Source: Flectonema sp. DT1601 (lineage: Eukaryota). From it: a stretch of 64,000 bases of DNA. Within the stretch, counting starts at the first letter, position 1; each line of letters opens with the position of its first letter. The translations under genes were made by a program, and so were the position numbers. Below are positions 8,749 to 58,899 of the stretch, one piece after another. The stretch covers positions 1,364,001 through 1,428,000 of the forward strand of contig OZ025783.1 of the NCBI GenBank assembly GCA_964019425.1, in the 5' to 3' direction. Below the pieces are notes generated by a model that saw only the letters and a list, made by a program, of their open reading frames with translations, was not told where the DNA came from and searched no databases.

Positions 8749-9402
8749 TACAACGCAAACCCTCTCTATCTCACGTCTTGCTTCAAAGTTTGTTGCACAC
8801 TTAGTCTTAATTCGTTTTCATTCTATCTTCGTACCTGAAGTATTGTTTTTTTGGTTCGGTTCAATTCCTGCATAGCCGAGAGGGGGAAAAAAAAAAAAAA
8901 AAAAAATGGTAGTGCAGTGTTATTTCAATTTTTATGTAGTGATCTGTGTCGATGTACTTCCCTAGCCCTTTGGCGATAAAAAGAAAAAAAATATTACATT
9001 CGGGTAAAATATTAAACTGCTGAGGTGAATCCAGACGCTGTCGGCTGTGGTTGTATCATTGAAGTTACCACGATAATCACTTCGTTTTATATCTAACTCT
9101 CGTCTTAGTAGCTTGTTTCATACATGTTATTTTCCTTTCTCTTTTTTTTTTCTCTTTCTTCGTAGTTGTGATTTGGCACACAAGCCAGGAAAAAAAAATG
9201 ATTTTTAGTCGTCAAACCACCCCCACGTGTGTCTTTTTCCCTTTTCCCTTTCCCTTTCCCTTTTTTTTTTTTTTTTTTTGTTACATTCATAGTGTAAAGA
9301 GAGAAAAAATCGACTTATTGATCTGATTATAACATCCAACTGTAAAGTCATATTACATTCCAATAACAGGTCGTGGCATCAAAAAGATTCTATTTAAGTA
9401 AC

Positions 9403-12400
9403 ATGATCAATCTACTACTTGTGATCCTTGGCCTCGTAGTGTCGGGATCAGCATCGTGTGTGACAAATGCCACATGTCAAGCTGGCTATGATTGCAAATA
9501 TAACATCACCATGGGTATGAACGTATCTGCGTGTGTACCATCCTGCGGTGTTGTCTCTTGTAATGTTAGTACTGATATCTGTGAAGTAGCTAATCAGGGA
9601 ATCCAATGTATTATGGCTAACGGGTCCATGTCGAATTCACCATGTGGGAGTTGTCCTTTTAATACTGATTGCAAATATACTCAACTTTTTGGATATATTT
9701 GTATGGATTCATGTTCATATCTGAACTGTACTAACAATCAGACGTGTTCACAAAATACAACAACCGTGACTTCAACATGCGAAGCTGCTGCTTTTACGGG
9801 TTTTCAGGGTGACTTCTGCAACGCATCCAACCCTTGTAGTAATTGTTTTTGTTCAGGTAATGCGACATGTGCATGTACGTCAAATATCTGTACCTGTAAT
9901 TCAGTAGCTAATATTTCTCTGTGCCAACAGCTCTCATGTAGTGAGCTTTGTCAATATAATACAACCTCAGCTAATTATAGTTGTGTTCCGAAATCAACGT
10001 CAGCATGTCCTTCGTGTTCAAGCCCAAATGTTTGTGACTACAATAAAACAAGCGGATTATTTGGGTGTGTACCACCGTATGTAGTCCCACCATCTGTTCC
10101 TTGCAATGGCTCTTGTTTTGTAGGAGAAGTATGTGACCAGGATGTTTGTACTCCATGGAGCCAGACAAACAATGACAATGCCTGTCAAGGTAAATGTGGT
10201 CCGAGCTTTTGCTTATTATCATCAAATACTTACAACTGCACGGGAGGTACTACTTGTAGCCCCCTCTGTAATGGCACAGACGTGTGCGCATTCATCGGAG
10301 GAGTTGGATGGGAATGTAGTTTTGACAACTGTGGAGGGTGTTCTGTAGGTGAGTCTTGCAATCTTGTGAATTCAGCATATGTTTGTGAAAATGATACGGC
10401 TATGCCAACTGTTGGCCCAGCCTCGTGTGCTGTTGGCTGCTTGTCGAACGAAACTTGCGTTCTCACTAACGGATCCTATAAATGTGAGGCTGTCGATCCG
10501 TGCTCTCTATGCAGCTTAACTGAAGCGTGCTTCCCACGTCAGAGCAATAAATCGATTTCATTTTGTACGTCAACTTGCACTGATGTCGCATGTCCCGTCG
10601 ACCAAACGTGTAGCGTCATCCCTGGTGTCCCTCCTATGTGTTCAGGTAATTGCTCTGTATGTATTATAATGTTTTAGTCTGCTATTTATAGTTTCTTTTT
10701 ACAAAAAGTAAGTAAACAAAAAATCCAACAGTCCCTCTCTTGTGGTGTTAATGAGAAGTGTGTTAATAATCAGAACGGTACAGCTGTGTGTGAGCCAACA
10801 GCATCAACTGATCCTTGTGGGAATTGCACTTCAACTCAACAGTGTCAGCAAGAAGGTGGATCAACAAAGTGTGAAAGTATAGATACCTGTAATCTTGCAA
10901 GGCGTCAGGAAGGACAGTTAGTTTGTCTGTTCCCAGAGAACTGTGTTATTGCCGCTGATGGCTATGCAATCTGTGTACCTCCGACACCAACATCATGTGT
11001 AGAGTCAGAGTGTGTTAAGCAGAACAAAGTTTGTGGTCCTGCAGGTGATTGTATCACAGACAAGTGTATCGCATTTTCTTGGCCACCACCTGGAGTTCAA
11101 TACTGCAGTCCAGACAAAAGCTGTCCAACAGGAAAGAAGTGCACAGGCTGTACAGCTTCAGCAACTTGCAACAGCGCTACTGGTGCGACAACTTACGGTA
11201 ATGATTGTCGTCCAACATGTGAGATCTTTTCATTACTATGTAATGTTACTGAACAAGATTCATGGACACCAGAAGAACTGAGAGATTGCTGTGCTGTCGC
11301 AAGCATCGGCTGTTCAATTTATGACTGTCTGGATGAGATGCCAGTTGAACAATGGTCGAGTGATAAGAAAACCTTCTGCTGCAATAGCACAGGAAAAGGA
11401 TGTCCTCCAAAAGCAGGTGAATACGACTGCTTAGATAGCAGCGACTTAACTGGATGGCAATTTGTTAAGAAACAATGGTGTTGCAACAATAAACAAATTG
11501 GATGCCCTGTTGGATATGACTGCAGCAGTAACCCTTCTTCATGGAACCAAGAACAATCAACATACTGTTGTAAACTAAAAGGCAAGGGTTGTACTGCAAC
11601 AAATGGTTACGACTGCACATGGAACAATCAAACCACCTCTGTATGGAGTAATAAACAAAAAGACTGGTGCTGTTCAAATGCGGGGGTTCGATGCCCTCCA
11701 CAAGATCTATTCTCATGTCCTGATAACACAACACAGTACAGCGATGATCAAAGTGAGTGGTGCTGTGCTAATAGAAACAGAGGATGTCCTTACAGCTGTC
11801 AAGAAAGAAACACGTCAAGGCAATCATGGACAGAAGAACAAAGAAAATACTGCTGTTTATATGATGGTATTGGCTGTAAAGCAAATATTGATAATTTCGA
11901 TTGTTTCGATAGTTCTCAAGTGTGGACATCTAAACAGAAGAAATACTGCTGTAAGGAAGAAGACATTGGATGTCAAATCTCATGTAATGGATTACTGCTA
12001 TCAGAATCTGATAAGGTTCATTGTTGCAATGAGAAAGGATTATACTGCAATGAAAAGATTCAAGATCCAACTTTATCAGAGAATATGATACGAAAGAGGT
12101 TCAGATTATCCTTTAGGGCTGATTGGGGATCTGTAGTTCAAAATCCAAAAAGGATGATTCGTATGTTTAGACTGACTTTATACCATGCGTCTAGAACAGC
12201 TGTATCAGAAAGTGCTAATATTGATATTGAGTTTATTGGATCAAAAACACCGATCGGAGATTTCCCAACCAATGATGATCTCCACAACTGGGGTATAATT
12301 GCGTCAACTAATTGGAGTATGGGAATTATTCCTGCGGAGGTAAATAAATCAGTGACGGCATCAAGAAATTTTAGAGTGCTATCTGAGACGAGGAATGAAG

Positions 12401-12828
12401 CGAGTGTAGCATCAGATCATTTATTTGTTTATTACTCTTTATACGGAACTGATGAATCAGTCATGAATTCTGTTAGTCATGAAATTGACGTAACTGGAAT
12501 CAATGCTGCTGGTAAGAATCCAACGGGACCAATGCATGATAATGCCGAAGGCTATTCTCTTATCCTACGTCATCCTAGAAATGAATTAATTGATCGAAGT
12601 GCTGGTGAAACACTTCCTCCACCTTCGAGTTCAAGCACTGATAGTGTTTTATTGATAATTGGTATTTTACTGGGAGTTCTTATCCTTGGTGGGTTCGTAG
12701 GCATGTACATCAATAGACAAAAACGACCATCAGGCCTCACAGAGTATTCCGGTCAACTAGAAGAAATGACGCCTGCCGAACGTAAGATATTTGAGACTCC
12801 TGAAACTGTTGAAACTGGTACAATTTAA
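9403..12828 (+). CDS. Cys-rich type I membrane surface glycoprotein; intron 10657-10731
   Basis: Signal peptide MINLLLVILGLVVSGSAS, many Cys and NxS/T sites, tandem YDC..W...K.WCC....GC repeats and a C-terminal TM (VLLIIGILLGVLILGGFVGMYI). A 75-nt intron joins the two ORFs in frame (CSGNCS|SLSCGVNEKC). Confidence 0.85.
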
Positions 12829-15537
12829 AACAACAGACGCAATAACGATTGTTGTTGTATTCACAGTTTCTTTTTTTTTTATATTTTATATTACGTTTCA
12901 AGCGAGAATGGTTTTTTTTTTCCACAAAAAAAAATCTAAAAAAAAAAAATATATATCAGTCATTCCTTTTTTTTGCGAACAAAAAACACCTTTTTCTCAC
13001 CGCCTGAGCAAGGTTACACGATATGTTACTTTTGCTCGATTTTTTATTTTTTGGAATCGGGGAGGGTGCGATCTGTAAAATTAGGCATAGGGATATACTT
13101 TTAAACATGGTAAGTGCTGCTAAAAAGAGATAAACGTCTCTTTGCAAAATTTCCTTGGTACTACTCAATGATAAATATTAATCCCAGACCTGGAATGGAA
13201 AGATCGAGAAAATCTGAGTAAAAAACACCCCTAATTTTTTTTTTTTTACTATTTTTTCCCCCTTCTCCCGCACTCAAGAGATATGCACCTTTTTACTAAC
13301 AAATCAACCCTAGTAGCAATTATGTAAGGAAAATGTTGCATCTGTGGTGGTGATAATGATCATTAAGTATCAAAGTAGGTCCAAAAAGACAGGTAGTAAC
13401 AATCTGCCTCACCGGCACATGCTTAGTACTCTTTAATATATTTTTGCTCGATTATTTTTTCTCTGGATCCCGCTGGGCCAGCAGTGTAAAATTAGACCCT
13501 TCGATTAATTTTTAGTTTTGGTACTTGTCCACGGCTGAGCTGATTTAGTAAACCACAAAATCTCTTTTCTCAATTCGGGAGACAAGTATGTGATGCCAAC
13601 CTCCCGATTTCGGACGGAAATGAACCCAACGATGCAGCGCATTAAAATGCCGCTTCGATCGAAATTTTTACAATTTTTTTTTGAAATTTTTTTTCAGTGT
13701 CCAGAATTTGTTCGCAAAAAAAAGGAATGACTGATATATAAAATCAATAAATAACATCCCAGCTCGCATTGCGATTTTGGAAATTCTTTTTTTCATTTTT
13801 TTTTTTTTTTTTTTTTTTCTTTTTGCACCGACAAAGTCGGAGAAGAAATTTATTCAGATTACAAAGCTTTTATTTATTATGGCTGTGCGTTCAGTTTTAC
13901 TGTCGATCAAAAAAAAAAAAAAAAAAAACACCAAATATAAAGGTTATCTGAATAGTTTTTTCTTACTTATGTCAGTAGCATAATCGAGGCACACTTGAGC
14001 TTACTTGGATTTCGCTGCTTTTGGTAGCCTTGCGTGTCGGTTCTATTGAACATCGCAGTTGCCAATAATAGTGCCAATTATTATTATTATTTTTTTTAAT
14101 TTTTTTTTTTGTTTCTCGTTTTCTGAATTGAAGATACATCCCTCGAAAAGGTGGATGGCGACAGAACTTTGACAGTATTGTCATTTTATGTTTTCTTTCT
14201 CTCTTTGGTGAGATTGTGAACAACGGAAGGTACAGTTCGGTAATATTCACCACTACAACCAATCTCGTCCATGCTCCAGATACTTTCGCGGCATGGGTTC
14301 TCTAGTGTTGTTCTTATAATACTGTCGAAAAAAAGTCATATTGTTTCTTTTTTATTGAACTGACGCTTGATAGTTACGAGGAAACACCTCTAATAATTGA
14401 TCAAACATTCTTTTTTTGAATTTTTTTTTTTTAAAACCCATTAATTAAGGACGGCGGTAGAAACCAGTTTTTTTTTTGACTATTTTTGAAAAAAGAGCCA
14501 ATGAGGAAAGGGTAAGGCAAAGTGAACCACCATTGTCTGCCCGTTACAAATACACGCACATTCACCACCTGAATGGTGAACAGAACAAACGAAAACACTA
14601 AAGACAAAAATAAGCTCAATTCGTATGACTTCTTGCGCTTCTTCAATTTTGATTTAATGTTGTTGTGGGCGCAGGGGTCTTCTTCTTAGTACGTTCTTCC
14701 TAATAGCATTTCCCGACACAGAGATGTTCTCCCCTTTGTAAGATTTAAGTGGAACTTGCCAAAACAGGGGTGCATGGCACATAAAAACCTTACGCCCCTG
14801 GCATCCATAAGTAGTCCTCACTCAAGTATTGTGATACTTACATTGTTTAGCAGCGCCAAATATAGATGGATAGTGCTCAGCGGTGCTGAACATGTGTGGG
14901 AAGTGCGAGCCTGTTAGCCGAGATTTCCCCTTAGCGAAAAAGAAATCTTTCAAATAAGCACTGTAGTGGTCCCCCGTCCTTAATGGGTTAACATGAATTC
15001 GCTTCGGTAGGTTTACTTTTGTGGATACTCACCGAACACGCAAAGACTGCATTTATACGGCTGCTGACATACAAAAAGGCTGTAAATTGCTGGCTTACCA
15101 GACAGAACTTCAAGGCTATGCCTATTTTAATACGATGGGTGATTCCATCGTATTATTGTTATTTTTTTTTAAATATCGTTTTTCATAAGTTTCTATTAGT
15201 TATTGGTTTGTCGTCATTTTTTTTTCTTTTTGTTTTTTTTTTCCCCCTTATTTCTTCTTCCCTGTTTTTCTCTTTTATTATTATTATTATTATTATTATT
15301 ATGACGTTTTCTGTTCTTTTTTTTTTTTTTTTTAATTTTTTCTTTTCTGATACGAGGCCCCCCGCTGCTGCGGTCAACCACGTCTTCACTAATGCCAGCA
15401 AACGATTACTCATTTGTAGTTTACAGGCCAATATGTAATCACTGTTGTGTGATATGGGTAAGTTTACACAAAGCATAACTACTCTTATGAGTTACCTCTC
15501 TCTCTTCAGATATTAAAAGTTAGCAACAAGCTACACT

Positions 15538-18500
15538 ATGACGAAAGGAGACAGCAGCTCTCGGAGCAGCAGCAGCTCTGATAAGGAAAAAGATTTGAAG
15601 AGACCTGAAACTGAAGAGGTTCGTTATTATCCTTTTGGAAATAATGGATTCGTTACCTACGATGAGTTCTTGGAACTTCCAAGAGGTTTGGACATTACTG
15701 AAGAAGACGCACAGAGTGAAGATGGTCTCGATGGTGAACGTCTTCGTGTCTTCAGAACCTTTCAGACCAAACAGGAACACGACAAGGCCAACAGATGGAA
15801 TTTACAAGAGATGCCTAACACGGAAGTCCCTTACAAACTTCTATCGACGATGGGAAAAGTTGAGTGGGTGATTTCAGCTTTCGTTAAGTTCTGCGCGATC
15901 TGGGGAGTTCTGTACTTGTTTATCATTGCTTTGGGAATTATGGGTAACGCCTTTAAGGTTCTTGGTGGTAAGTCTTCTGGTAAGACTTTCCGTGAGAGTG
16001 AGCTGCTCTCCAATCCGCTGGCCGGTCTTGCGATTGGTATCCTTGCGACAGTTCTCATGCAGTCATCCTCGACCACGACTTCGATTGTTATTTCAATGGC
16101 TGCTTCCGACTTGGTGTCGGTGAAGAACGCGGCGTACCTGGTGATGGGAGCGAACATCGGTACCTCAGTGACCAACACAATCGTTTCGATTGCTCACTTG
16201 AACAGTCCGGAACAGTACCGCAGAGCATTCACTGCTGCTGTGTTCCACGACATGTTTAACTGGTTGACTGTATCGATGTTCCTTCCTCTCGAAGCGTCTT
16301 CTGGATTCCTCGTAGAGCTCGCTGGGGCAGCTGTCGACAGCATGAACCTCGGAGATAAACAACAGAAGACTGAATTCATTAAAAAGATTACAAAGCCTGC
16401 TTCTGGACGTGTCGTCTCTGTTGACAAGGGACTGATTGAGAAGATTGCTGAAGCAAAGACTAGCGAAGAATTATCAAAACTCGAGAAGAAGTCGATCATC
16501 AAAAAGAAGTCTGGATTCGTTTTCCGTGACACTCCACAGTCAGATGACGAGGCCGGTTTGTTGTTGTTGTTCGTGTCGATTACTATGCTTTGCACTTGTC
16601 TGTTGCTTCTCGTTAAGCTGCTCCAGTCTGTCCTAAAGGGAAAGGTCGCTGTGTACACGAGAAAGGTACTGAACCTCGACTTCCAGAACAAGTACCTGAA
16701 GATGTTTGGTGGGTTGGACAGTTACATCCTTCTCCTTGTCGGAACTGGTGTCACCATTTTAGTGCAGTCGAGTTCAGTATTCACCTCCACATTGACTCCA
16801 CTTGTAGGTATTGGATTGATTCACATTGAAAAGGTTGTTGCATTGACTCACGGAGCTAATATCGGAACCACTGTGACTGGTGTCATCTCAGCACTCTCAG
16901 GAGACAATGTCGATACCGGAATGAGAGTCGCTCTTGAGCACGTTTTCTTCAACTGTCTCGGAACAGTAGTCTGGTTTGTCATCTGGCCGCTCAGACCCGT
17001 TCCTCTCGCCGCAGCGAAGTTCCTCGGAGAGACTGCCTCTAACTTGAAGTGGTTCCCTGTCGCGTACATCATTGCTGGTTTCGTAGTTGTTCCGACTTTG
17101 ATCGTTGGTCTTTCGATCCCTGGATGGGAGGTACTAGTGGCTGTTGGTATTCCAATCTTTCTGATTATCTTGTTATTCGTTTCATGGTTATGGGTAAGAA
17201 GAAACAGGGCCAACATGTTATCACGTGGAGGATGCCTGAGATCTGATGTCGCCCCTTGTGGATGTGCATACCCAAACTGGATGCAGGTTTGGGGAGGAGA
17301 CCGTAGTGAGGACACTGTCGACATGGACGAGCTTAGAAAGAAGGAAGCTTTAGCAGAGGCGGACGAAGTTGCTGAATGGCCAACATCTCCGATGGCGTGG
17401 GGTATGGCGCTCTTGGCATTCCTCGCATTAATGATGGCGATCCCTACTGCTCAGTGGAGACGTATCCGTTACGCAAAGGAGACCCGCGGAAGAAAGGAAT
17501 ACGGTTTCGGACTGTGGGAGGTCTGCTCTGATGACTTCAAAGAGGACGTCGAATGGGCAACCAGACCTCCACTGTGCGACCAGGCACAGGTGAACGAATG
17601 CGCAAAGGATTTAGCTCGTAGTTGTAAGACTAACGACTGGGCAGCAGAATTCGAGCCAACTAGTTTGGAGGAAGACATGTACGAGAGTGCCTGGCAGACC
17701 TGCTCGAAGCTCGGGTGTCGTGTGTGGGACTGGCTGCAGCATTGCCCTGAGATGCCAGATTGCAGTGCCAACAAGGAATTCCACACAAACCGTTGTGCCT
17801 CTGTAGTGTATAATTACAAGTTCTTCAACCATAACCAGATGGACTCAAAGGGTGTTGAGTACTCGTACCCAGGTGACACTTCAACAGTTCCACCTCCGAT
17901 GGCGAGTACCCCAACACACGCTAACGTTTTCTTCTCAGGAGTTGCCAGCAGTTACAAGGTATCCACTTTCCCAGTTGCACCTAAGTCTCTTGATGACCTT
18001 AACGCGGCTAACGCCCCAAATGGTCTGACAGCTTCGTGCACTGGCTGTACTGAGACCTGTGCTTCGTCTACCGATCGCAGCATCTGCACTGACGCTCCAG
18101 GATTCACTGGTCTTTCTTATGATAGTTGTTCAGGAGAGTTACTTGTCGTGACTGGACGTGGTCCAACTCTGGGATGCACTGATGGAAGTGCCTTCGTCTT
18201 TGAAGGGTTTGCACCGTCGATGTCGAAAATCTCTCTGACGAAGGCGAAGGATGCCTCATCCCACGTTGCTGAGATTAGCACCACAGTTCAGTTGAAGCGC
18301 ACTAACAACCTCGGCGCTGTTACCTACGCCAGTGGTCTTCCAAATGCTAACAGCTGGGGAACTGCTTACAATGCACCGTCAGTCACCAGCGCTACCACAT
18401 GCTCGGGATCAATCTCAGCAGTTGATACTGAAGGTCTTGATCTTAGTGATGTTCACGTTATTAGATACAAAAGGAACTCTACTGCTGGTATCTACGTTGG

Positions 18501-19978
18501 TTCTGACCAGTACGGAGCAAGGGTTGTTTTCTGGGACGACAACGGTGAAATTCTCGCTACCTACGTTGCTGTCGGAACGGATGTTGCCAACACGATTGCT
18601 GTCCTTCCTTCACAGTTTGGATCCCGAGACAGGTCAAGTGGAAGAGTAACGATGACTATTAACTCTGACAAAACAAAGTTGGTTGTGTGCGCACAAGTTG
18701 CGATGAGCACTACGGCGTATCTCCGTAACAGTCCTGTCGTCAGATGTGCTGTCTTAGACATCAGTGACTACAGAACTCCGACATTGTTAAGCGTGAAGCT
18801 CGTTCTCCAGAACGAGGCCGCTGTAGAGTACGGAGCAGACGTAAGAGGTGTCGCCTCTCTCCAGTCTGAAGTAGAGTTCGTCTCCGCCCAGTGGCTTACT
18901 GGTGACAAGGTTCTCTTCTTGGAGCAGGGCAGGGTATGATTTTATTATTTTATTTCAAGAAATCCATTCATGACTTTATAAACTAAAACAGTTTAACGGT
19001 AAGAATCTTGGAGGAGGTATGTACGTTGTCGACTTCTCTACTGGAGATGATATCAAGTCATTGACTACCGACACTCTGGTGAACATCGAAGGAGCTGCAG
19101 TAAGAGCCAGGGCTTCTGTAACCAACCCATCAACTGCTGATGAATTCGACTACGAAGCCCATCCACAGGCCTATCAGATATTAGTCAACGCTAATGCCAG
19201 ACCTGTTGATGTAGAAAAGCTGATGGACCTGAACGACATCGATGAGAGCACCAGAGAGAAGATGTCATCGTCACCAATCGGAGGGATGCTCGTCCCAAAT
19301 GAGCACAATATCGTTCTCGCTGAAGACAATAAGTTTGGAGCCACCGGCAGCAGCTACTCCAAAGTGCACGTTGTCAACCTGAAAAACAAGTTGAAGATGT
19401 CGCAGCCAAAGTGCTCTCCATCATCATCATCATCATCATCATCAACACCAACTAGTGACTCGAATATTGTAAAGGGAACTGAGAGATGTCGTGACATCGA
19501 AGATGTCTGCCCGGAGGGTGACCTCGCTGGAGACTTTAGAGCTGTTGCTGGATGTGTTGTTACTTCATGTATTCTTCTATTTATTGGTCTCGTCTTTTTG
19601 ATTGCCTACACTTGCACTTCAAAGGCTGCGTTTGGTATCTACGTCACTGCCGGTTGTTTCACTGTGTGTTGGATTCTGCTTCTTGCTGGTTGGGTCAGGG
19701 TTGCTGCTTTAGAAGACAGCACCTACACCTGTATGTTCCAAGATGAGGCTTTGAGAGGTGGGCTTGTTCTGATTAAGGGAAAGCTTGTGTACATAACTAT
19801 GGAGAGTTACTCGTGGGCGTTTGCAATCTTCTCGTGGGGATTGATGACAATCTCGTTAGCCACTGTCCTGCACCACGTTATCAGTAAAGCATGCTGCCCT
19901 GATCCTTTAGCTGAGAAGAAGAAGGAGTTGGCAGAGGAGGGAGGTAACGACAGTGAGAATGCTCCTGACCAAAAATAA
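15538..19978 (+). CDS. SLC34: SLC34 (NaPi-II) sodium-phosphate cotransporter fused to an amastin/claudin-like module with an inserted phytase-like domain; intron 18934-18991; about 1460 aa
   Basis: Two QSSS repeats (MQSSSTTTS, VQSSSVFTS), two GANIGT motifs and HDMFNWL. A 58-nt GTATGA...AAAACAG intron joins the ORFs in frame (EQGR|FNGKNLGGGMYVVD). Confidence 0.9.
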
Positions 19979-22123: not shown

Positions 22124-25100
22124 AAGTATATTGCCGAGTTAAATCTTGTTGTGCACACAGGTCTATGTCATCCCCTCTTGACTCAGACCTGAAGCAAAGC
22201 CATGAAACTTGTTATTTCTTACCCAGATAAGGAGAATTCTTTGATCTTCGAACTAAAGGGTAAAAAAAAAATAATTTCGCAATTTACCAATCTCACTGTT
22301 CGGTATTCCATGGTTGCAATCATTAGGAAAAAAAAAAAAATAAACGACTATAAAAAAAAAAAAAATTACTTACTTCTTTATGCCGTACCTGTACCCATTG
22401 CTATTCGAATAAACGATGAAAAGGAAAAAAAAATAAGAAAAAAAATAAGAATCGAAGAAGAATATATATTATGCCGAAGGAACTGTTTTAAAAAAAAAAA
22501 AAAAAAAAACTGGAAGCCGAAGAAAAAAAGAAAAAAAAGAAAAAAAAAAAAAAAAAAGAATTTTTATAGTTTGTGTCCTTGATTATTTTCCCTTCCTCAC
22601 CTTATTTTCTTTTTCTTTTCGACAACAATCCTGTATATTTATACTGACATTATTTTTGTTATGTACAAGTGCTATACAATATCTGGCATTTTCTTCATTT
22701 TTGGCTACTATTCCAAAACGAAGCTGAACCAATTCTTATGCTTTTTTAGTTTAACCTTGTTAAGGATAACTATTTCTACATTGTCAAATTATCACTCCCC
22801 TTTTTTTCGTCTACAAACTCAAACATTCAACCCCTTATTTTTTCTTTTTTTTTAGTTTTCGAATTTTTTTTTTTCACTCCTCGTTCTCTGTTTTTTTTTT
22901 TTTTTTTTGTTGTTGTTTTTTTTCTGTTTTCGTAAAGGAAAAAAAAAAAAAAAAAAAATATCTTCCGTTGCGGTGGTAATTCCACGCTTGCACGGCTTAA
23001 CATCCTCTCTTTTCTAAATTTTCATCCGGTTTCTCATTACCGGCCCCCCTTTATGTAGCTGTTTATCATTATTTTCTAAATCTGAAAAAAAAAAACAAAA
23101 AAAAAAAAAATACCAGATTAGAAAATTTAAGGGTTCGAAACTTCACAACAGGATTTCTTGTTGGAAGTTGAACACAAAAATATTTCATTGCAGATTATTA
23201 GTTTCCTGCAGATAAATATAAGAATAAGATAAAAGTGAGAGAGTTTACCATTCAGGAGATTGTTAGCTCAGATGATAAAACGTAATTCAGATAAAAAGAG
23301 GATTTCTTTTTAATTCCTCGACTTCCAATACCCTATCTCAATCCCTGCTTTTTTTTATTTTAATTTTCCCCCCTTATTCTTTTTTTTTCTTCTTTCCTTG
23401 TTTTTTTATTTTTGGAAACAAGAAGAAAAAAAAAAAGGGAAAGAAAAAAAAAACCAAAGAAAAAAGGAGAAAATTTAAAAAAAAAAAAAAGAAACGAAAA
23501 AGAGGGAACATAATTATTATTTTTTTTTTTTTTTTTTAGTATATAATATCCTTCGCAGTCCTGTAGCCTGCAGAACAAACAAAAAAGTACCAATATGTGT
23601 TTTTCCGACACGAAAAAAAAAAAAAAAAAAAAGCAAAAAAAAAAAAAAAAAGAACTCTTCGTGTACCCTAAGGGAATAAAAGCATTATTATTAATCCTGG
23701 CATCAGCCAGCTCTTTTCTCTTTAACGAGAAATCCTGATATGTTTTGCATTTCTTTCCGCTTCTTAATAAATCTCCAATTTAAAAAAAACATATTATTAT
23801 TATTGTTGAGATCACATAGGGAACCCTTTTGTACGATGTAAATCAGTCTTCTGAGTGCTAGTAAGAGACTTGCTGTAATACTACACGCGTCTCTCCATCT
23901 GTTTCGTCACAGTCTGTGGATCTAGTCACCCGTTTTGTTTGTTGCTCTTTTTTCTCTTATCTTCTAAAAAAAAAAAAAAAAAAAAAATAAGGCAAATTGT
24001 CTTCCGGTGTCCTCTGCACTTAACGTTATTCTTTCTTTTTTTGTTTTCATTCTTTTCTTGCTACGGTTCCAGATTCCGTGATGAGCCTTGTTAAACAAGT
24101 ATCTATTGGAAAATGGTAACTAGCTTTTATTCTTTTTGTTGTGCACATAAAATTGCGCAAACGAGTCCCGTGCAGAAATTCTGCTGAGGTGATCAACGCG
24201 GTTTGACGTGATACTTTGTGATAGTAGTATGCTTAGTCTTGCTCAATCGCTTGTATCTTTTGGGTCAACTTTTCTTTTTTTCTTTTTACTGGCAAACGTT
24301 TTTTTTGGTATGTAGTTGTGTGTTGTGCCAAAACTGCTTATTTAACGAGCGCCCTTCAGTAGCCGAGTAACCTGATTTCGCGCAGATAAAAAAAACATGA
24401 AAAATCCATTCGGAAAATTCCGCTTGCCAGTGCAAGCAAACTATGTGTTCGTGGTCGCAGTTTTGCTTTTTTTTTTCCTCTTTTTTTTTCCCGTTTGTTT
24501 CCTTCTCCCGAGTCCCTGATAAATATAAAAAAAATATTAGTTTCAAGGTACTTGGTCACATTGTGACACTCAAAAGTATGGGCATTCCGTGTAGAAACTC
24601 TGCACTGGTTATCCATACCTGCTTGTGAACCGCCGAGAGAATCTATCCTCAAAAATGATAGATGACCCTTTTGTGAAATTCCAGCAGTTTTGCCATCTAT
24701 CTTGTGTTTGTGAGTGTTTTCTTTTTTGCCAAACTTTTTATCTGTGTTGGGGGGTATTAAAAAGTTGTTCTGGGCACATGTGACATTACTGTCATCTTTC
24801 CCATGTGGGGGAGTTAGCTAGTGTTGTCGATTGATGGGTACTGTCTTAACTGAAATCCTGCTGTCCTTGAAACGTCTGAAACGAGGGATCTCTCAAGTTT
24901 CAAGTCCTTTTGTTATATTTTATTTGTTTTCGCTCTCTCCGTGGCTTTTTTTTTAAAAAAAAAATTTTTTTTTTTTGGAAAAAAAAAAAAAAAAAAAAAA
25001 AAAGAGGGAAGAAAAAAAAAACGGAAATGAACGTCCAACGTGCTTTCTTTCTTCGGTTCAGAGCCAGTGATTCTGATACCGCATTCAAGGATGGTAACGT

Positions 25101-25753
25101 GCCTTCCTTGAGACTGACTACGGCTTTAATTGCCATTGATCTTAACGAGCCGGCGCTGTGCGTGCGATTTCTTTCCTTCTCATTTTTAGTTACTAAAAAT
25201 AAACTTATAATTACAAGAAAAATTTGGTGCTTCTTGCCCTAATTTTCTTTTGATTTTTTAATTAATGTTTATTGACGATTGTACTTCGAAAAGAAGGAAT
25301 CGAAAAAATCTTCTCCCCTCTTGGTTTGCTTTTTTTTTTTGAATATACTCAAACATTCAACCCCCCGCATGATAGATCTTTTTGTATCTTATTAAATCCC
25401 CCCCGTTGTTCTGCATAGCCTAAACACTAGAAATCTAATCTAGCGGCGAGCATCTTGCGAACAGATGTTTATCTTTTTTTTTGGAATTATCCAAACAAAT
25501 AGGAATATTCGAGGAAGAGTTCAGCCTTCTCCCCGCAAGAAAAAAAAAAAAAAAAAAAAAAACCTTCCCTCCCAATGAGATTCCTTAAATAATATCCTTT
25601 CGTTTTTTTTTTTTTTTTTTTTTTAAATTTCTTTATAAGTTTCCTCCTCCTTACAGAGGAATATCTTCGCTATGCCGTCTTACAGGAAGCAAGTTATAAT
25701 TTTGGTGACAAAAACAGCAGTAATAAATTATTTTGTTCTTCTTGAAACGGTAC

Positions 25754-26127
25754 GTGAACGGCAGGACCCTTCAGTCCAGCGTCATGTTGAATTCTTAGAA
25801 GCCTATCAGTCGACTCCAGTGTGGCGCTTTTGTTTTTATTAGTCACTGATGTACCATTTTTTTTTTTTTTTTTTACAAGGCAGTTTTTTTTGAACTGCAG
25901 GACCCCACAGTCTAGCGTTCTAAGCAGCTTGCAAATATGTAGCAACCCGCATGTTTTTTTTTTTCTCCTTTTCTCCTTTTTTTTTTTCTTCCTCGTATCT
26001 AGACTGTGCTTAGTTGACCCGATGCGGGGTGTTACGGTTCAGTTGATGTTTGCGACCTCTGTTGTAGCCTTCTAACATTCCTTAGTGGTTCCATGATAGG
26101 TCAGGTGCAGGACCCTCAGTCTAGCAC
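25754..26127 (+). repeat. Three copies of a conserved hairpin GC-A-GGAC-(CCYWCA/CCTCA)-GTCY-A-GC
   Basis: Copies at 25754-25785, 25892-25920 and 26105-26127, each with a different but complementary lower stem. Confidence 0.7.
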
Positions 26128-26240
26128 GCAAATAAAAATTGCCGTAGCTCCCGCCGTGGTATCAATTCAGTCGGATTTTAGCCACGCTGAATGCGTTTGG
26201 AAAAAAGAGTTTAAAAAAAAAAAAAGGGGAGGGGGGGGGG

Positions 26241-26271
<31 letters not shown>

Positions 26272-29200
26272 ACATCAACATCGTAGGATGATTGCTTCGT
26301 GTCTTTTCCCCTGTTTTCTACATTGTCAAATTACCCCCCGTCATTACTGATCTAGCATCTTTCTAAGCTTCTCGGTTTAACCCCTATGAGTATATTCCTG
26401 TTTCTATAGTCAATTCGTCACCCCGCATTGCTGATTAATTCATTTCATAACATTGCTCCGTGTATCTAGATCATTTATTGCAAATTTTTTTGTATCCCGA
26501 AGTTGAAAGCTGTAGAAGTTATTTTCCTTGTTCTTATGGTGATTTTGTACCAAACAGTGCAAAATACTAAGGCAAGTTGGAGAAAAAAGTGAACGTAGAA
26601 ACGTCAAACTTCCGTTATTTATAACAGATCAAAAAACAGTTTTCTTTTGTAGCTATTGGCAATAGTAGTAGCCCGCAGCAGAATTTCTTCTTCTCTGTCT
26701 TTTTTCTCCCTTTTCGGATACATGTCCGCGTTTAGTAGGTATTATAAGAACAAAAAGAAATGTTGGCAGCACTCGTAAACCTCTTTTAGCTTTATCAGTT
26801 TAAGTCGGTTCACGGATTTGTGCACAAACAAAAACATCCAGTGTTATATTACTGTTTTTCTGTATACTTTACAAGTCAATTCTATCTTTTTTTTTTCCAG
26901 AAAAGCGTAGCGTGCTAGCCATAATACATAGATTTTGGTTTCCCATTTATTCTCTCTCTCTCTCTTGTTTTTTTTCTACTCACGTTTCTTTTCTTTCCTC
27001 GGCTTTCACACAAGTATCCAATTTGAGTTACCTAGTTACGCATTGTTCGTGGTTGGTAGATCCTTTTCCTGTCGCTGATTAGGTCTGCGTCTGCATTCAT
27101 TATGACTATAACAGAATTTAAAAAAAAAAAAAAAAAAAAGACGATTGTTTATTGCCTTCCCTTTTGCTCTTTCCTTCCAACATCCATCACCTTTTTTTGA
27201 CCATGTTAATTTTCCCGTAGTTATGGTCTTGTTGCTCTCGTCTAGTTTAATGCCGTAGAGTAGCTGCGGTATTCTTGTTCGCTCGAAAACAGTCTTTTTA
27301 AAAAGATTTCCTGTATTTCTTTTGTTTATTTATTTTTCCTTTTTTTCCAGAGACGAAACCCCCTCGTGGCGCTGCCTTGTTGTATCAGTCACAGGCAGCG
27401 TCCTCTTTTCTTATTTTGTTTTCCCCTCGAAAGCTATATATTTAAACGTTTTGCTGTTGTAGAAGGGGCCAACTACGCTCGTTCCTTTCATGTGTTTTGT
27501 TAATCTTTTTTTTCATTTTATTTCTTCGGCTTCCAACAGTTTTATTGCAACTTATTCTTCTACGGTGAGTTAGTTTCCTTTTGGTGTCTGTCTACTTACA
27601 GTACCAGTGGAAAAATCAGCTTTTGTTCGCTTAGCAGTCTTTGGCAAATCCATGCTGCTTACTGTGACTCAAAAAAAAAAAAAAAAATAGAAAGAAAGAA
27701 AGAAAGAAAGAAAAAAGAAAGAAAAAAGAGAAAAAAAAAGGTGAAATAAAAAATAAATAAAAAAAATCTTCGGCTTCCAATAATTCAAATTTTATCCTTA
27801 CCGGCGGCTTACTGCTCAAAAGTAGTGACAACATGATTTCTTCGATTCAGTATCATATTTAATCGACAATTTTCGGTTTTTAGTTTTGGGGTACTGGTTT
27901 GGCGACTTATGGCTCTGGTGATGAAGGTTAAACCTTCATTTCAACGTATTCTTTTTTGTGCAGTAGTGCTAGTTAGTTGATTGGTTATATCTTGAGGTTA
28001 GCTTCTACTTACATCCAACTTACCGGAATTCTTTTTTAAAAAAAAAAAAAAGTAAAAAATAAATAAAAAAGATGACATCGTGTGCAGTGATGATATACGA
28101 TAGTCTTTGCTCCCCCCAACGTTCATTTAGCTATGGCGTTTTCTTTTTCTTTTCTTTTCTTTTATTTTTATTTTATTATACGTAATTCAAGGGTTCACGC
28201 TTTGAACCAGTCACTTGTGGTAGGTAGCCTTGTGGTCAAGGCTCATACTAATCCAGTTATGGAGGTCACTTGTCGAAGTAGCCCTTGCATCTCCCTTTTC
28301 TGCCTCTCTCCTTGTTTCCATTTTTTTATTCCAGTACACCGCTAGCTGTCGTTGTGCCGATCCCGTTCCCTCCCTTCGTTATTTCGTTCACGTACGAATA
28401 TACTATGTTGTATTTTCCCCGCGTTTCTTTTCTTTTTTTTTTTCAAGCAGGGATTTATTTTCCTGTCCTTGTAGTTCTTTTGCCTCACAGCGAAAGATGC
28501 CAGCTAGTATTATGTCACAATTTATCTTTTTATCTTTTTTTTTTTTTTTTCCCCCGTTAACAGCCTCTAGCTGTCACCGCTGAAGGTTGGCAACAGGCTG
28601 GTGTCCTTCTCGTGCAGTCACGCTGCTTAAGACTATCATATTAATAACATTCATTCTTCTTCTTCGCATGTTGAAGTTTGGGTGTGACGTGTTCGTTGGG
28701 ATGTCTTGTCCTGAACTGCATTTTTTTTTAATCCAACTAAATACTTATTAACGCTTAAGACCTGGAAAGTATTTCCCAGTTACTTGTGATAAGGTGTGTT
28801 TTCATCCGTCCCCCTTTTTTTTATTCTCTTTTTTTTTTTTTTTTTTTTTTTTTGTTCTCTGGATCACGTTCCTTTACCTGGCCTGCTTTGCAAAGCATCG
28901 GAGATTTATGCTCTGGTGACACCCTGATGACAAAGTCTCTTCCATACAGGAAATTGCTGCATCCTTCCTGCTGGTTCTAATTATTATTATTTCTTTTTTT
29001 TTCTTCTCCCTCTCTATCTCTCTCTGCAAGCAAACCTTCCTGAATCCCTTCCCGTCCCAGTCAACGTAGCAAGATATAAAGTAGAAAATAATTTAGAATA
29101 AAAAAAAAAGAAACGTTTAAAAACTTATTTGCATGTCCCGCTGTTTCGTGTGCGGATTTTCCCTCCCTTTTGGCTAACTATTTTTGCATTAAAAAAAAAA

Positions 29201-29749
29201 AAAAGATATTATTATTTTAATCGAATATGGTACGATTAGAAAAAGGTATTAACTCGAAGACGAAAACGAAGCACTCTTTTTTTTTTGCTTTATGGTGTTG
29301 GTCCTTCCCACTCCCTAAAACTCTTTTCCTACCTGTTCTGACGTAAGCCAAAGATCAGGAGCAGGCATTTTCTGTGGTGAAGAAATTCAAAAAAAAAAAA
29401 AAAAAAAAAAAGGCGGTAGGAAAAAAGTAATTGTTATTGTTAGGTGCGTACTTTGGTTGCCAAGTTAGTGAGGTTATTTTGTTGCCCCGTATCTTTCCTT
29501 GCTTAGCAGAATCACCGATGGTGATATCACATTATCCTGCTGTACGCGGAAACAAGAAAAAAAAAAGAGGGAAAAAAAGCCATTTGGCTTTGTTTTATTT
29601 TTTTATTCTATTTCTTTTTTTTTTTTTTTTCCCCTTTCCTCTCTCTGTTTTATTTATTTATTATTATTTTTTTTTGTACCCCCCATGCTATATTACACGT
29701 AAAAAAACTGCAAACAAAAAGGCAGAAAAAAAACGACTTAAATGTTTCA

Positions 29750-30270
29750 CTTCAGCGCCCAGCTTAAGACTTGATATTCGGTCCTGGTTCTTTATCACTT
29801 TTAGATTAAGGGCTTGCTAACCTGAAGATTTTGGCAACTCCACCTTACCTACATAACGGGAAATCAGCACCTGGGATGCGCGTGTTAGTGGCCTGTATTT
29901 TAGTGCAGGAAACGATTATACACTTCAAAAACAGATTATCTAATGATCTCAGACAGCTGAATCAAAAGATGCCTGTGAAGTTTCGGAAACCCACTTTGCA
30001 CTGCTTCTCGTGTTTTGATGAAGGAGAGCTGCTTCAGCGCCCAGTTGCGATTTTGGTTCGAATAGAGCCAGTCGTGGCTAACCTGAAGTACTTTAGGCTT
30101 AAACATCTTGGTGGAAAATTGCCTCAGATGTGTATTTGTTTTGGTTTTATATTATCGGCATAAAAAAAAAGAAGTGTTCCACGAAAAAAAAAAAAAAAGA
30201 AATTCTCAGCGCCCAGCTGCTATTGTGGTTTGTTGTCGTCGAACCTGCAGTCAGCTAACCTGAAGTTTCT
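29750..30270 (+). repeat. Three copies of a structured element TCAGCGCCCAG-[variable stem-loop]-GCTAACCTGAAG
   Basis: Copies at 29750-29827, 30032-30088 and about 30198-30270. The flanks are conserved and the interiors are unrelated but self-complementary. Confidence 0.75.
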
Positions 30271-33200
30271 CAAAGAAAAAAGAAAAAAAGTAAAAATATA
30301 AAAAACAAAAAACAAAAAAAACAAAAACGATTTGATCATCAATTCACTGAGATATAATTTCTGGTGTGCATTACCAACATTTCGCTGGTCCCTAAATTGT
30401 GTTGACCTGTAGCTTCGCGTTGATGTGCAATTCAAGAAGCTCTATCAAAAAAGAGCCTGCATCGATATCTTAAGGCAATAGATATTTCCATGTTTGCCAC
30501 GAGGCTGTGATCTGTTTTTCTATTTTTATACCAACTCTCCATCCCCCTCGCAGTCTTCTAAGGCGTCGCGGTGAAAATTAAGTGTTTAACCTGTTAGTTG
30601 TTACCACTTATTTTCGGTTCCCTTTTTTTTGTCCGAGACCTTTTTTTTTTTTTTAATGTGACGTGTTTTCAAGTAACATGCCTAGCTTTCTTTATTTTAT
30701 TTTATTTTTTTTCGTTGTTATCTTTGGAATTGGTTTGAAAAGCTTACTTGCACTAAAAATACAAGCAGCATATATTGCCCTTGAGATAAATTCTGATAAA
30801 CGCTGCAATGACAGCTTGAGTTCAATTCTGCTACTAGCATGCTGTTAAAAAAAAAAAAAAGATGAATAAAAAAAAATTAAATAAATAAGTAATAAAAAAA
30901 TAGAAAACAGCAGTACAAGGCACTTGCTATGAAAGGGGAAAGAAAACAAAAGAAAAATAAATAAATAAAAACACCGTTTTATATGGTAACGCTCTAAAAG
31001 CGGAACTTCCTTTCGCTAAGGTAGCACCGCACACAGAATTCTATATATCAGTTTTTTTCCTAATCCCCGTGCAAAGGTGGAGGATAACAAGTGAATAAAA
31101 GCCGCCGTTTCTTCAAGGGAACCGATGCGAAGACTGCTAATTCTTTGTTTTGTTCTGTTTGTGTCTTTTGCACATGAGTTTATTATTTTTGTTTAATTTT
31201 TTTTTTTTTTTTTTTTGAATTTTTTAAAATTTTTTTTCTTGTTATCACTGAGTACCAATTTGACAAGCGGACTGCGTGATGTTATTTTCTTGTACTCTTT
31301 ATTTTTCGTTAAATGGTTTTTTTTTTTTTTAAAACGGGGTGTAAGAGATGACTAAACTAATTATTGGGGCATGGTACGTGGCGATGATTACGCGCCGCTT
31401 CAAATATCAACATGCAAAAAAAAAAAAAAAAAAAAAAAAAAAATGAGAACATTTCTAGTTATTAAATAATACGCTTTGACGAGGCAACCCGAGACACCTG
31501 TTTCTTCTGATTAAGTCAGTCACAGTGGCATGTCATGGAATTTCGCTTCGGTCGGTGTACTTATTACTTGCACGTTTTCGTGCTTTTTTCCCCTTTTTTT
31601 CCCCCAAAAACCCTTATTGCTCTGTAATGAGCATTTTTATTTTATTTTGTGTCAAAACATAACCTCACTCGCAAATACGGGAAAATAAGCACCGATTATT
31701 TATTATTATTATTTTTATTATTTTTTTTTAAAATCCCCCTCTTCCCCCTTTTCTGCGATGAATAAAATAAGCAGCCATAAGATAGTAGTAACATCGGTCT
31801 TTGTTATACAGATAAAATACGATTTATCTTATCATAGTATTATTGCTTACTCCACGGGGGACAAAACCAAAAAAAAAAAAAACGTTCTTTTTCTACCCCA
31901 ACGTAGGGGGGTGAGTGTACCGCTTAGTAGCTTGCAGTATTGTTTTTTATACCTCCCTTGGTTGGTACAATAAATTTAGAAGTAGGGGAAGATATATATA
32001 CGAATGGAGATTTGTTTGTGTAAAAAAGCTATTAGATAAGACTAGCTTTTGCACCAGCGTGACGTATACTGCAACCAATCAACATAAAAAAAGAAATAAA
32101 AATATAAAGTTCAACTTACTGAGGTGCATCCTGTGGCGAGAAGGGGGAAAAAAAAAAAAAAAAACGACAAAACATTATATAAAATCAATGTCTAAGATAT
32201 ATTCGTGGGCAGATTTTTTTATAGCGTTGGATTCCAAACGACATCGTAAAAATAAAAATTTAAAAATATGTTGTGCTTACCTTTAACGAGTATTTTGTGT
32301 GACACCCGCGTTGCGACGGCACAACGTGCGAGTGTTTGTTTCCCCTCATTTATTTTCCCTTTTTCTTAAGCTCTCTTCGCAGTGGGTATGCCACAAGTTT
32401 TTAAAAAGGTGGCTTTAAAAAAGAAAAAAAAAAAAAGACTAATTGAGTGCATAGTCCTACTGGGGACGTCGTAGCCGATTAGTTCTCTTTGCATTTTCTA
32501 TTATTTATAGAAAGCAGCTTGCGATTTTATTGGGAGATGGATATCCGGTTTGCTCTTATAGCTTCTTTTTTTTTTAAAATTCTTTTTTTTTTTTTTCTCT
32601 TTCCTTCTTCACACGGTGTAATTCTTACCTTCCCCATTCTCTCTCCTTAGCAGATATAGTACATGTTTTTTTTTTTTTTTTTTTTCATTTCCTTATTTGT
32701 GCATATATTACTACCAAGTAAGCCCACTGCCTGCTTTGTGCATGTAGTGGGTCTGGGTAGTTACCTCTGGTCAATTTACGTCTCTTCTCGCCTGTGAGAA
32801 TCTCACGGTGAAGTGATGGTAACCCGTGAGCTTCTCCAGAAGTTTGACTTCCCTGACTTAGATAAATAAATAAATTAATAGGCTTGCATCTACACTCTAT
32901 AATTGATGCCAGGGGGTCATGCAAATGAAATTAATTTGGAATGATGCTGTTTTAGGCATCGCTGGTTTATATTCACTATGCAGTAATCTGTATTTTTACA
33001 AAAAAAACTGTTATTTTTTCTACATTTCCGGTGACCAGTTGCGCTCGGAAAACTTTGTCCTCTTTCTTTTCTTTTTTTTCTGTGAGATTTTAGTTTCGGG
33101 CACCAACAAGTAAGTAGGGCACGTTGCATACCTCACCCATAAAATTAAATTATTATCCAATCTGAAGCTAACAATTTAATTTTGATGTTGTTTTAGTTGT

Positions 33201-34642
33201 CTTGACTGACCCCACTGAATTGTAACAAACGCGGCTTTTAAGACAACTATTTCTACAGCAGCGGGGAGGGAATTGACAGACAGATTAAAAACAGTTCCCT
33301 TTTTTTTTTTTTTTTTTTGCTGATTAAGTTAAAGAATTATTTCCATTTCGTATTTTAGTAGTACAGTAGAGAAAGGACGTTGCTTGTTTCGAACCACCCT
33401 TCGATATTGCAGGGGAGGGAACGACAAGTTCTGCCTTGCGCTCATTTTTTTATTTCTTTTCTTTTCTTTTCTTTTTTCTTTTTAAAATAAAAATTCAAAT
33501 TTTGCTCTCTCATCTGTTTTGTCATTTTCTTGCTATGTTTAATGCTCTCAACCTTTTCTTGTGGTTGCAAGTTCCACACAGCTGGGAGCTTTTGCCTAGG
33601 ACTAACTTGTCTACATGCGGCTCCGAGTTGAACGCACGACCAAGTCTTTTCAGATTGTATTGATTGATCACTCTTAAGTTACTTTTTGTTATCAAAATCT
33701 GTTTTATTTATATATGTTTTTAGTTTATACAGAGTGGACAACTGGTGTCTATTCTTTTAACTACGGTTAATGTAATTCCTCACAGAGTTAACAGAGGTTT
33801 TTAGCTGCCCGTGAATCTCTCTCCCTTTATTTCTAGTTGCGATTTTCAGCCTTGTAGCTTCTGTGCTTGGCTTGCTTTTAATAAATACATTTCTTAATGG
33901 GGAGATGGTAGTTCTCGGCTCCTTTATCTGGGATGGAACGGCCTTATTGCGACGAGTAGCTTCATAGCAATAGCGGTTCCAGGTTTACAGTTTTCTTTTT
34001 CCACCTTCTTTTCCCATATTTCCCTCTTACAACAGCTGTAAGGGTAATATTAGCTCTCTTTAATTCAAAAAAAAAAAAAAAAAACATTACTTACGAGAGG
34101 TTCACCCAGAAAATATTGTGACTTATTGAAATTAGTTCTATTATTGTATCGGAAAGTTAGGTTCCACTGGTGATGTGTTTTTATCGCTTGGGACAGCTGT
34201 GTGATTAGAGCCACGTATAACGTAAAGGAATGGCCTTTGGAAAAACTGTGTGGTTTAAAAATGAAACAAATGAGTACTAGTTACTTAACTGTTATAATTC
34301 TCACAGCAAGATCCACAGGTCCGGGAGATGTATCTTCATGACTTCACGAAATACGAAAGGCTTCACAGAGTTTTTGTCTCATTTCAAGCTATCTCTTTTC
34401 GTCTTTTTTTTGACGTGCTTTGTGCGTTCCCTCTCTTTTTTTTTTAAAATAAATTTTATTTTTTATGTAATTCTTTTTTTTTTTTTTTTTAATGTTTAGG
34501 TATACTTTACATTAATCAGCCCAAAGTAGCTCGTGGTACAGTGATACAGACGCAATTAGTATTCAGAATCGATAAATTCGGGGGACGTACTGCAGAGCTT
34601 GTGGGTGTTATTATGAGTATTTCCTTGTATCTTTCACTATAA

Positions 34643-34676
<34 letters not shown>

Positions 34677-36678: not shown

Positions 36679-36714
<36 letters not shown>

Positions 36715-37620
36715 CCCCCATGTTCGCTCCCACACCCCTTCAATCGCTCTCTTTTAACGTATGCAGTAATTTTTCTCATCTTTCGTTGGGTAGCACTACC
36801 TTATGTAAACCTTCAAGTAAATGAAAAGAATCCACTCAAAGCAAAGGAATGGAAAATGATAGTAACTCTGTATGCAGCGAAACAGAAAGGGGGATCCTAT
36901 CCTCAGTTTAGTCAACGAGAGAAGAGAACAAAAGAATTACTAAAAAGTTATTTCTCTAGAATGCCATGCTCTCTCGAAGGCTGCTCATCCTGTCTTGCAA
37001 AAAAAAAAAAGGAAAAAAAAAAGAAGAACTCCATTTCACTTGGTTACTTATTTAACAATCGCTGGTTGAACTGCTGGATTCAGTTCTGTGGGTGATTCGG
37101 TTTCTATGTTTTTAATCATTCTTTTCTCACAGTAGTCCTAAGAAAGCGCACCTCATCGCATAAAAAGGACTTCACATATTTTTTTTTCCCTCTCTCTCTC
37201 CCCTCATTCCCTCCCTGCTCATTTCTAGCTTATTGAAAACAAAAAAATGAAATGAAGGTAAAAAGAAAACAATAAAAAAAAAAAAGAAAAAAAGAAAAAA
37301 GAGCACAAACAAACAAAAAAAAGAGAACGAAAGAAAACAAACCGAAACCCTTCCGCAATCATGTTATAGTGAAAGCGATAGCCGCTGGTTGCTTCCTTTG
37401 GCTTACGAGCATCTGATTCCCAATGCAGCTATTCCTTTTTTTTTCTTTTTCTTTCATTTTTTTTCATTCACTTCTTTCCTTTTTATGAAGTGAATTTAGT
37501 TTTTTTTTTGCACAAAATTGGGAAAAGAAGAACCAATTGTTCAATCCAGATTCTTTCCTATATATAAAAATTACAATTTAACTACAGAAATCATCAAAGC
37601 ACACAATATGGTTACACAAC

Positions 37621-58806: not shown

Positions 58807-58899
58807 TTAAATTGTTTTTTTGATCGATTTTTGCATTTATTTCATACCACACTATTTCTCAGGAGGGGGGAAAAAAAACAAACAACAAAAAAAGAAAAA

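Follow-up and report, generated by a model that had tools for sequence, protein, structure and literature searches.

The window analysed here, 64,000 nucleotides of the Flectonema sp. DT1601 contig OZ025783.1 (positions 1,364,001 to 1,428,000 of GenBank assembly GCA_964019425.1), contains on its plus strand a two-exon gene whose 1460-residue product joins an SLC34 Na+/phosphate cotransporter core to a predicted claudin-fold four-helix unit, the first loop of which holds a beta-propeller related to the Pfam family PF13449 (Phytase-like). The features of the gene are collected in Table 1. An earlier reading of the same DNA, made from the letters alone (the sequence-only reading), had taken this gene for a candidate one-protein system for scavenging or sensing organic phosphate; the motifs that it listed were all found, in the order and at the places given.

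Residues 1-555 match SLC34 in Pfam (E 4e-30), with two Na_Pi_cotrans repeats (PF02690); the core scores 314 bits against TIGR01013, for which the cut-off is 306, and the structure of zebrafish SLC34A2a (PDB 9z60) matches it with an E value of 7e-109. The available portion of a structural study of SLC34A2 names the residues for inorganic phosphate (Pi) and for the sodium sites Na1 to Na4 (bioRxiv 10.64898/2026.05.25.727688), and we mapped these by motif through the zebrafish alignment. Both QSSS motifs and all Pi and Na1-Na4 ligand motifs are kept in the window, and the set is complete in 14 of the 15 full-length fused homologues checked, the remaining one (P0101) having no match to the second QSSS. 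The protein thus shares with known SLC34/NaPi-II transporters (PF02690, TIGR01013, zebrafish SLC34A2a) the two inverted repeats, both QSSS motifs, the eight helices and the Thr, Asn, His and Asp ligands for Pi and Na; it differs in adding about 900 C-terminal residues, with four helices and a large outer domain. Because the Asp of Na1, whose loss renders SLC34A3 electroneutral, is kept, import would be electrogenic, with three Na+ per Pi. Judged by these motifs, the protein probably works as an importer of phosphate driven by Na+, and the complete SLC34 core of the sequence-only reading is borne out by the Pfam, TIGR01013 and SLC34A2a matches together with the Pi and Na motifs.

Two plus-strand open reading frames (ORFs) are present, 15538-18936 (1133 residues) and 18974-19975, and the gene model joins them through a short intron. 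The splice pair adopted is the shortest and the most AT-rich of the 54 GT/GC..AG pairs around the break that leave the frame open, and it yields 1460 residues. When an intact propeller repeat of the homologue P0017 is aligned to the model, its aligned residues 34-362 end at 18933 and residue 364 resumes at 18995. A contig from a relative that is about 85% alike (run X1, with no run type on record) spans the junction and comes out exactly 58 nucleotides shorter there, 77 letters being skipped with 19 letters between; no junction-spanning contig identical to the window was found. Third codon positions take 32 of the 39 differences listed against this relative in exon 1 and 26 of the 38 in exon 2. 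Three close homologues in ENA cease to align at the intron position. Because continuity over the intron is exact to the residue, the relative's contig has the 58-nucleotide gap, and homologues encode the whole in a single frame, the sequences indicate that the SLC34 core, the claudin unit and the propeller are one protein and that the architecture is real, in agreement with the single spliced product that had been modelled before. Similar short AT-rich GT..AG stretches occur in other genes of the window. Just 5' of the start codon, at 15458-15509, GTAAGT is followed by a pyrimidine tract and then CAG, which may be a short intron in the 5' untranslated region or a trans-splice acceptor at 15509. 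No paralogue of the gene was found elsewhere within the 64-kb window, and the window has no Rfam match.

Table 1. Features of the SLC34-claudin-propeller gene in the window
Feature	Position	Strand	Basis
Exon 1, coding sequence (residues 1-1132 of the 1460-residue model)	15538..18933	+	ORF and splice-model reading
SLC34 Na+/Pi cotransporter core (about residues 110-555)	15865..17202	+	Pfam, TIGR01013, zebrafish structure, motifs
QSSS motifs	16060-16071 and 16765-16776	+	Motif match
Linker after SLC34 transmembrane helix 8, inferred to be cytosolic; begins with basic residues, has a Cys cluster and lacks a hydrophobic segment	17203..17391	+	
First helix of the predicted claudin-fold unit, with the W-x(n)-GLW-x2-C signature	17392..17526	+	
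Cys-rich helical cap in loop 1, common to dinoflagellate-type proteins	17527..17817	+	
First part of the PF13449-related beta-propeller, without most of the acidic and Arg residues invariant in the family	18043..18933	+	
Intron, 58 nucleotides, GT-AG, 79% A+T	18934..18991	+	Splice-pair survey, relative's contig, propeller-repeat alignment
Exon 2, coding sequence (residues 1133-1460 and stop)	18992..19978	+	ORF, splice model, propeller-repeat alignment
PF13449-related propeller, last part	18992..19396	+	
(CAT)n repeat encoding a Ser-rich spacer	19419..19444	+	
Cys pair that closes loop 1, followed by claudin-unit helices 2-4 (helix limits approximate)	19487..19885	+	

The four-helix unit downstream of the core carries W-GLW-C...C in loop 1, the signature of the claudin/PMP22/TARP superfamily. 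The W and C of this signature are invariant or nearly so in both the diplonemid and the dinoflagellate-type groups, the GLW being variable, and loop 2 holds a Cys-bearing beta-hairpin. A structure model of the Rhynchopus humris piece P0020, running from the linker to the C-terminus (predicted local distance difference test, pLDDT, 88; predicted template-modelling score, pTM, 0.79), shows four helices and a beta cap. Its claudin unit matches TARP gamma3 at Z 15.2 (root-mean-square deviation 3.2, 162 of 175 residues aligned), TARP gamma7 at 15.0, Cav1.1 gamma at 14.7, MP20 at 14.5 and claudin-15 at 13.5, and a model of the propeller-less P0057 gives the same claudin-type matches (Z 13.6-15.5); those of the two models together span 133-177 residues at Z 13.5-15.5. 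Foldseek with the P0057 model returned nothing at E<=0.001, a profile of the unit found no PDB sequence, and Pfam gave no claudin or amastin match on the unit in the window pieces, the fused homologues or 13 family members, a silence that the long loop-1 insert may explain by breaking the claudin match. The models support a claudin fold for the four-helix unit, and the split of this unit in loop 1, as read from the sequence before, gains support from them, from the signature and from the split profile described below. Less can be said for the amastin half of that earlier label: Amastin (PF07344) matched 0 of 5 window pieces and 0 of 13 members in Pfam, the solved structures matched are TARP, Cav-gamma, MP20 and claudin, and the look-alikes in the ESM Atlas (an amastin-bearing top cluster, 30% Amastin, at 0.89, and a claudin-bearing one at 0.85) serve as a lead only. 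An Amastin match on Symbiodinium P0144 was rejected, as it falls on SLC34 helices 7-8. The unit resembles TARP gamma2/3/7/8, Cav1.1 gamma1, MP20 and claudin-15/19 in its predicted four-helix bundle, beta-sheet cap and signature; it differs from them in being fused in one chain to a transporter and in the size of loop 1, to which a Cys-rich helical cap is added and, among diplonemids, a 400-residue propeller too. Claudin-fold subunits such as TARP and Cav gamma modulate channels.

The loop that bears the propeller likely faces outside, that is, away from the cytosol. In the available portion of the SLC34A2 study the loop between transmembrane helices 3 and 4 is outside (bioRxiv 10.64898/2026.05.25.727688), and because five more crossings follow, and the hydropathy scan shows no helix between helix 8 and the claudin unit, the loop after the first claudin helix should be outward. 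An outer position also suits the nine to eleven Cys that the diplonemid and the dinoflagellate-type groups both conserve. The outer placement proposed by the sequence-only reading is thus likely, by helix counting and conserved Cys. Further Cys clusters stand at 17224-17270 and 19895-19899, in the linker and tail that would be cytosolic, and are possible palmitoylation sites.

The insert itself gave no Pfam Phytase-like match on the window's own pieces. Four of nine fused homologues scanned match PF13449, two above the cut-off (P0018, E 1.5e-10; P0019, E 1.7e-8) and two below it, and a profile of stand-alone members of the family matches the window model at E 1.6e-65. In the P0020 model, where the insert was modelled within the whole piece, it folds as a propeller whose strand list reads as five blades and whose best matches are YjiK (Z 19.5) and glutaminyl cyclases; Foldseek with P0020 returned generic propellers, and ESM Atlas with the propeller piece gave nothing beyond leads below 0.9. 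Bacillus-type beta-propeller phytase, which is six-bladed and Ca-loaded, was not among the fold matches listed. At the sequence level the homology of the insert to PF13449 is firm, and so the phytase-like propeller proposed earlier stands, by way of the homologues, our own profile and the homologue fold.

Five stand-alone members from outside the diplonemids share 30 invariant polar positions; the window propeller keeps 14 of these and the intact eukaryotic propeller of P0017 keeps 28, whereas of 35 non-polar invariants the two keep 18 and 21, so that the loss of residues is selective. At seven acidic motif positions, all of them kept in the three repeats of P0017 and in P0030 of Lacrimia, the window keeps one and 16 fused units keep at most two each; of four Arg motif positions the window keeps two. 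On this pattern the fused propeller is likely non-catalytic, and the release of phosphate by it, which had been among the functions proposed, is unlikely: every fused copy has lost most of the acidic and Arg residues that all intact members keep. Degenerate repeats occur in stand-alone PF13449 proteins too. Between genera the propeller is 24-33% identical, as compared with 64-78% for the core; among close relatives an identity of 72-76% and a bias of differences to third positions indicate purifying selection. The propeller tree is poorly resolved, and in it the fused units require three changes, a single origin being also compatible. On this weak tree the window propeller resembles the intact stand-alone P0017 (37%) more closely than it does the propellers of other fusions; it may have changed more slowly or been replaced at a later time.

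In the literature on PF13449 and phosphate we found no biochemical study of the family, and its link to phosphate rests on expression. In the available portions of the two reports, a Nodularia gene labelled PF13449 (NSP_RS03145) is up 5.5 log2 in phosphorus limitation (PMC9846622) and the secreted Phaeodactylum tricornutum PtPhos2 is up 7.4 log2 in phosphorus starvation (PMC7283521). Both proteins, taken here by their published label, share with the window a homologous propeller, the same motif order and a likely outer location; the window differs in having lost most of the invariant Asp, Glu and Arg and in placing the propeller in a loop of a membrane protein. Stand-alone eukaryotic proteins with one to three PF13449 propellers (P0017, P0021, P0022, P0024, P0027, P0029 and P0030), two of them from the diplonemid Lacrimia lanifica, often have a signal peptide and a C-terminal anchor and mix intact with degenerate repeats. 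In P0017 all three repeats are intact and nearly identical, and P0029 also has desulfoferrodoxin-like domains. At one prokaryotic locus of an intact propeller the neighbours are kinase and WD40 genes, with no phosphate genes among the four ORFs scanned.

To place the fusion among SLC34 proteins we scored the 120 best SLC34 matches of 623-1983 residues, out of 1618, with profiles built here; SLC34s shorter than 623 residues (diatom, haptophyte, chlorophyte, euglenid, kinetoplastid and bacterial) lie outside this survey and the tree. Claudin unit and propeller occur together in 17 of the 120, of which 13 are complete and four end at the intron; in the 13 complete fusions, each in one frame, the claudin profile matches in two parts that flank the propeller, with the break at profile positions of about 130 and 148. 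A further 55 have the claudin unit without the propeller, and 48, mostly from animals, have neither. The C-terminal extension was found in none of the animal or ichthyosporean proteins of this set. The propeller-less class includes Prorocentrum cordatum, Amphidinium carterae and Gymnodinium smaydae, the others being mostly transcript-sized contigs that group with these. The dinoflagellate SLC34s, of 835-930 residues, share with the window the SLC34-claudin fusion and its Cys pattern but have no propeller; they are annotated as phosphate transporters or left unnamed, and some of their relatives have an N-terminal SPX. In one search, five of 21 matches also carried SPX. A single chain of about 1100 residues combines SPX, SLC34 and a claudin-fold unit in P0042, P0080, P0082, P0084 and P0086, which come from transcript-sized contigs and group with dinoflagellate sequences. 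In P0042 and P0057, Tyr replaces the Asp of Na1.

In a quick unrooted tree of 36 cores, the 25 that bear claudin units lie on one side of a branch (Shimodaira-Hasegawa-like approximate likelihood ratio test, SH-aLRT, 96), with the diplonemid and dinoflagellate-type sets as sisters. Because 55 of the 120 have the claudin unit alone, the pair of importer and claudin unit exists independently of the propeller. We infer from these distributions that two distant groups share an older SLC34-claudin fusion, into which the propeller would have been inserted in diplonemids.

Searches with the insert returned six proteins and then 51 representatives. Uninterrupted full-length fusions are present in the transcriptomes of Rhynchopus euleeides, Diplonema japonicum and Namystynia karyoxenos and in D. 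papillatum, where all of them (DIPPA_19196/19186, 19218, 19221, 23782 and 07814) are annotated "hypothetical protein"; R. humris has a partial fusion. The same architecture, which the sequence-only reading had proposed to look for in other euglenozoans, is therefore found in a single frame in four named diplonemid species, and the window core nests in the diplonemid group (SH-aLRT 100, quick trees), which points to a probable diplonemid source. One D. papillatum contig of 381,215 bases holds at least four fusion loci (DIPPA_19186, 19196, 19218 and 19221), a tandem expansion, and one close relative in ENA has several copies on one contig. A subcellular proteome of P. papillatum with 4,870 proteins includes DIPPA_19186; the available text and supplement file 1 of that study name none of the other five loci (PMC12697944). 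In these data, with three markers compared in all, the profile of DIPPA_19186 correlates with that of a tagged cell-membrane protein at r 0.18, 0.89 and 0.97 in replicates 1, 2 and 3 (this marker being imputed) and with that of an endoplasmic reticulum protein at r 0.81, 0.82 and 0.67, which lends weak support to a place at the cell surface.

Our preferred explanation, to which we give a probability of about 0.55, is a working Na+-driven Pi importer joined to a predicted claudin-fold unit that holds, outside, a likely non-catalytic propeller as a docking or shielding cap. The SLC34-claudin fusion would have arisen first; diplonemids would later have inserted a surface-phosphatase repeat into the claudin loop, and its active site would then have eroded. 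The importer core would run electrogenic Na+/Pi uptake, the claudin unit, on the analogy of TARP and Cav-gamma, would be a built-in auxiliary subunit that aids trafficking or gating, and the propeller would serve outside the cytosol as a cap and not as an enzyme. Several points weigh against this explanation. The models of the claudin fold and the propeller are those of the homologues P0020 and P0057 and not of the window's own protein, and unrelated or de novo four-helix bundles score Z 13.0-13.3 with P0020 and up to 13.9 with P0057. Around the first claudin helix seven Lys or Arg follow and three precede, so that the positive-inside rule does not support the outer topology, and loop 1 has a single N-glycosylation sequon. 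The seven acidic positions were picked after the alignment had been seen, and several fused rows are gapped there; conservation is the ground for calling the lost residues catalytic, since a sequence search found no solved structure of the PF13449 family. Finally, the Arg of the first motif is kept in 10 of the 11 fused rows that cover it and one Glu in 12 of 16, and these two could serve ligand binding.

That last point bears on a second role for a dead propeller, in which it would bind organic phosphate or a polyanion and either concentrate it for neighbouring phosphatases or signal by way of the claudin unit and so gate the importer. Besides the retained Arg, which is joined by the second Arg in several rows, such a role draws on the phosphorus-starvation response of intact PF13449-labelled proteins in the Nodularia and Phaeodactylum reports cited above, on the existence of intact membrane-anchored paralogues (P0017, P0030) beside degenerate ones, and on the channel modulation known for claudin-fold subunits; pocket residues nevertheless vary among the fused copies, as those of a conserved ligand site would not, the domain is diverging rapidly, and degenerate repeats are common in stand-alone proteins as well, so that we consider a binding or sensing role possible though somewhat unlikely. 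The fast divergence of the whole ectodomain would also suit a part with no relation to phosphate, an adhesion or coat element at the surface or in the phagosome lumen, the fusion serving to anchor or sort the importer. The claudin- and amastin-like look-alikes, at scores below 0.9 a lead only, are surface proteins, but a family tied to phosphorus starvation is an unlikely chance choice for such an insert and the Cys-rich cap is a conserved feature of two distant groups, and we hold this explanation to be improbable.

We think it a little more doubtful still that the propeller remains an active phosphoesterase feeding the importer through a rearranged or reduced site, as in the scavenging proposed originally. 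The clear homology to PF13449, the purifying selection among close relatives and a family chemistry that is not established leave room for this, yet fused copies keep at most two of the seven acidic positions and the replacement residues differ from copy to copy. That the ORFs are separate genes, or the fusion an artefact of assembly or annotation, appears very improbable: the missing window-identical contig at the junction and a protein collection that has the exon-1 product alone, for this gene and three close relatives, point that way, but they stand against single-frame homologues in both transcriptomes and genomes, residue-exact continuity at the intron, and a relative's contig that lacks exactly the intron's length, and exon 1 alone would stop inside the propeller with one of the four helices.

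All three parts of the importer with its claudin-held cap come from known families; it is their combination, and the claudin unit hidden in dinoflagellate SLC34s, that appear to be undescribed. In the available text of the literature on diplonemid phosphate transport, PF13449, dinoflagellate SLC34, SPX with Na_Pi_cotrans and protist SLC34 fusions, a search that left subscription papers outside, we found no description of SLC34-claudin architectures with or without a propeller, and the available main text of PMC12388464, PMC12122900 and PMC10161547 has no mention of claudin or amastin. A bolder proposal, which we regard as unlikely, is that dinoflagellates and diplonemids share, probably through gene transfer, SLC34 importers with a built-in claudin-fold regulatory subunit, and that in diplonemids a pseudo-phosphatase in its loop gates uptake and either binds organic phosphate or brings in active phosphatases at the surface. 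If true, it would place a one-chain phosphorus transporter-sensor in two of the most abundant groups of marine protists. Phosphate uptake shapes the ecology of both groups, and diplonemid nutrition is poorly known. The nearest relatives of the diplonemid SLC34 carry, without annotation, a module whose fold is known as a separate channel subunit, and the natural series of architectures (the core in animals, then with claudin, with SPX and with propeller) lets the effect of an auxiliary claudin subunit on a solute carrier be asked. D. papillatum, which is genetically tractable, has at least five fusion loci, one of them detected as a protein.

Elsewhere in the window, a Cys-rich, secreted-looking gene at 9367-12828 has a short AT-rich intron near 10646-10731 and no Pfam match. 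About 15 kb of AT-rich DNA at 22124-37581, with homopolymer runs and no convincing ORF, lies between two plus-strand gene clusters. A microsatellite, (AACAA)53, occupies 42454-42716, apparently within an intron of an aminotransferase gene. Two tandem ORFs of 419 residues, at 51419-52678 and 53457-54716, are 99% identical in DNA and have no Pfam match, and 58786-59943 encodes an RNA ligase (PF09414) with a PHA02142 OB-fold, an Rnl2-like protein of phage or bacterial type.

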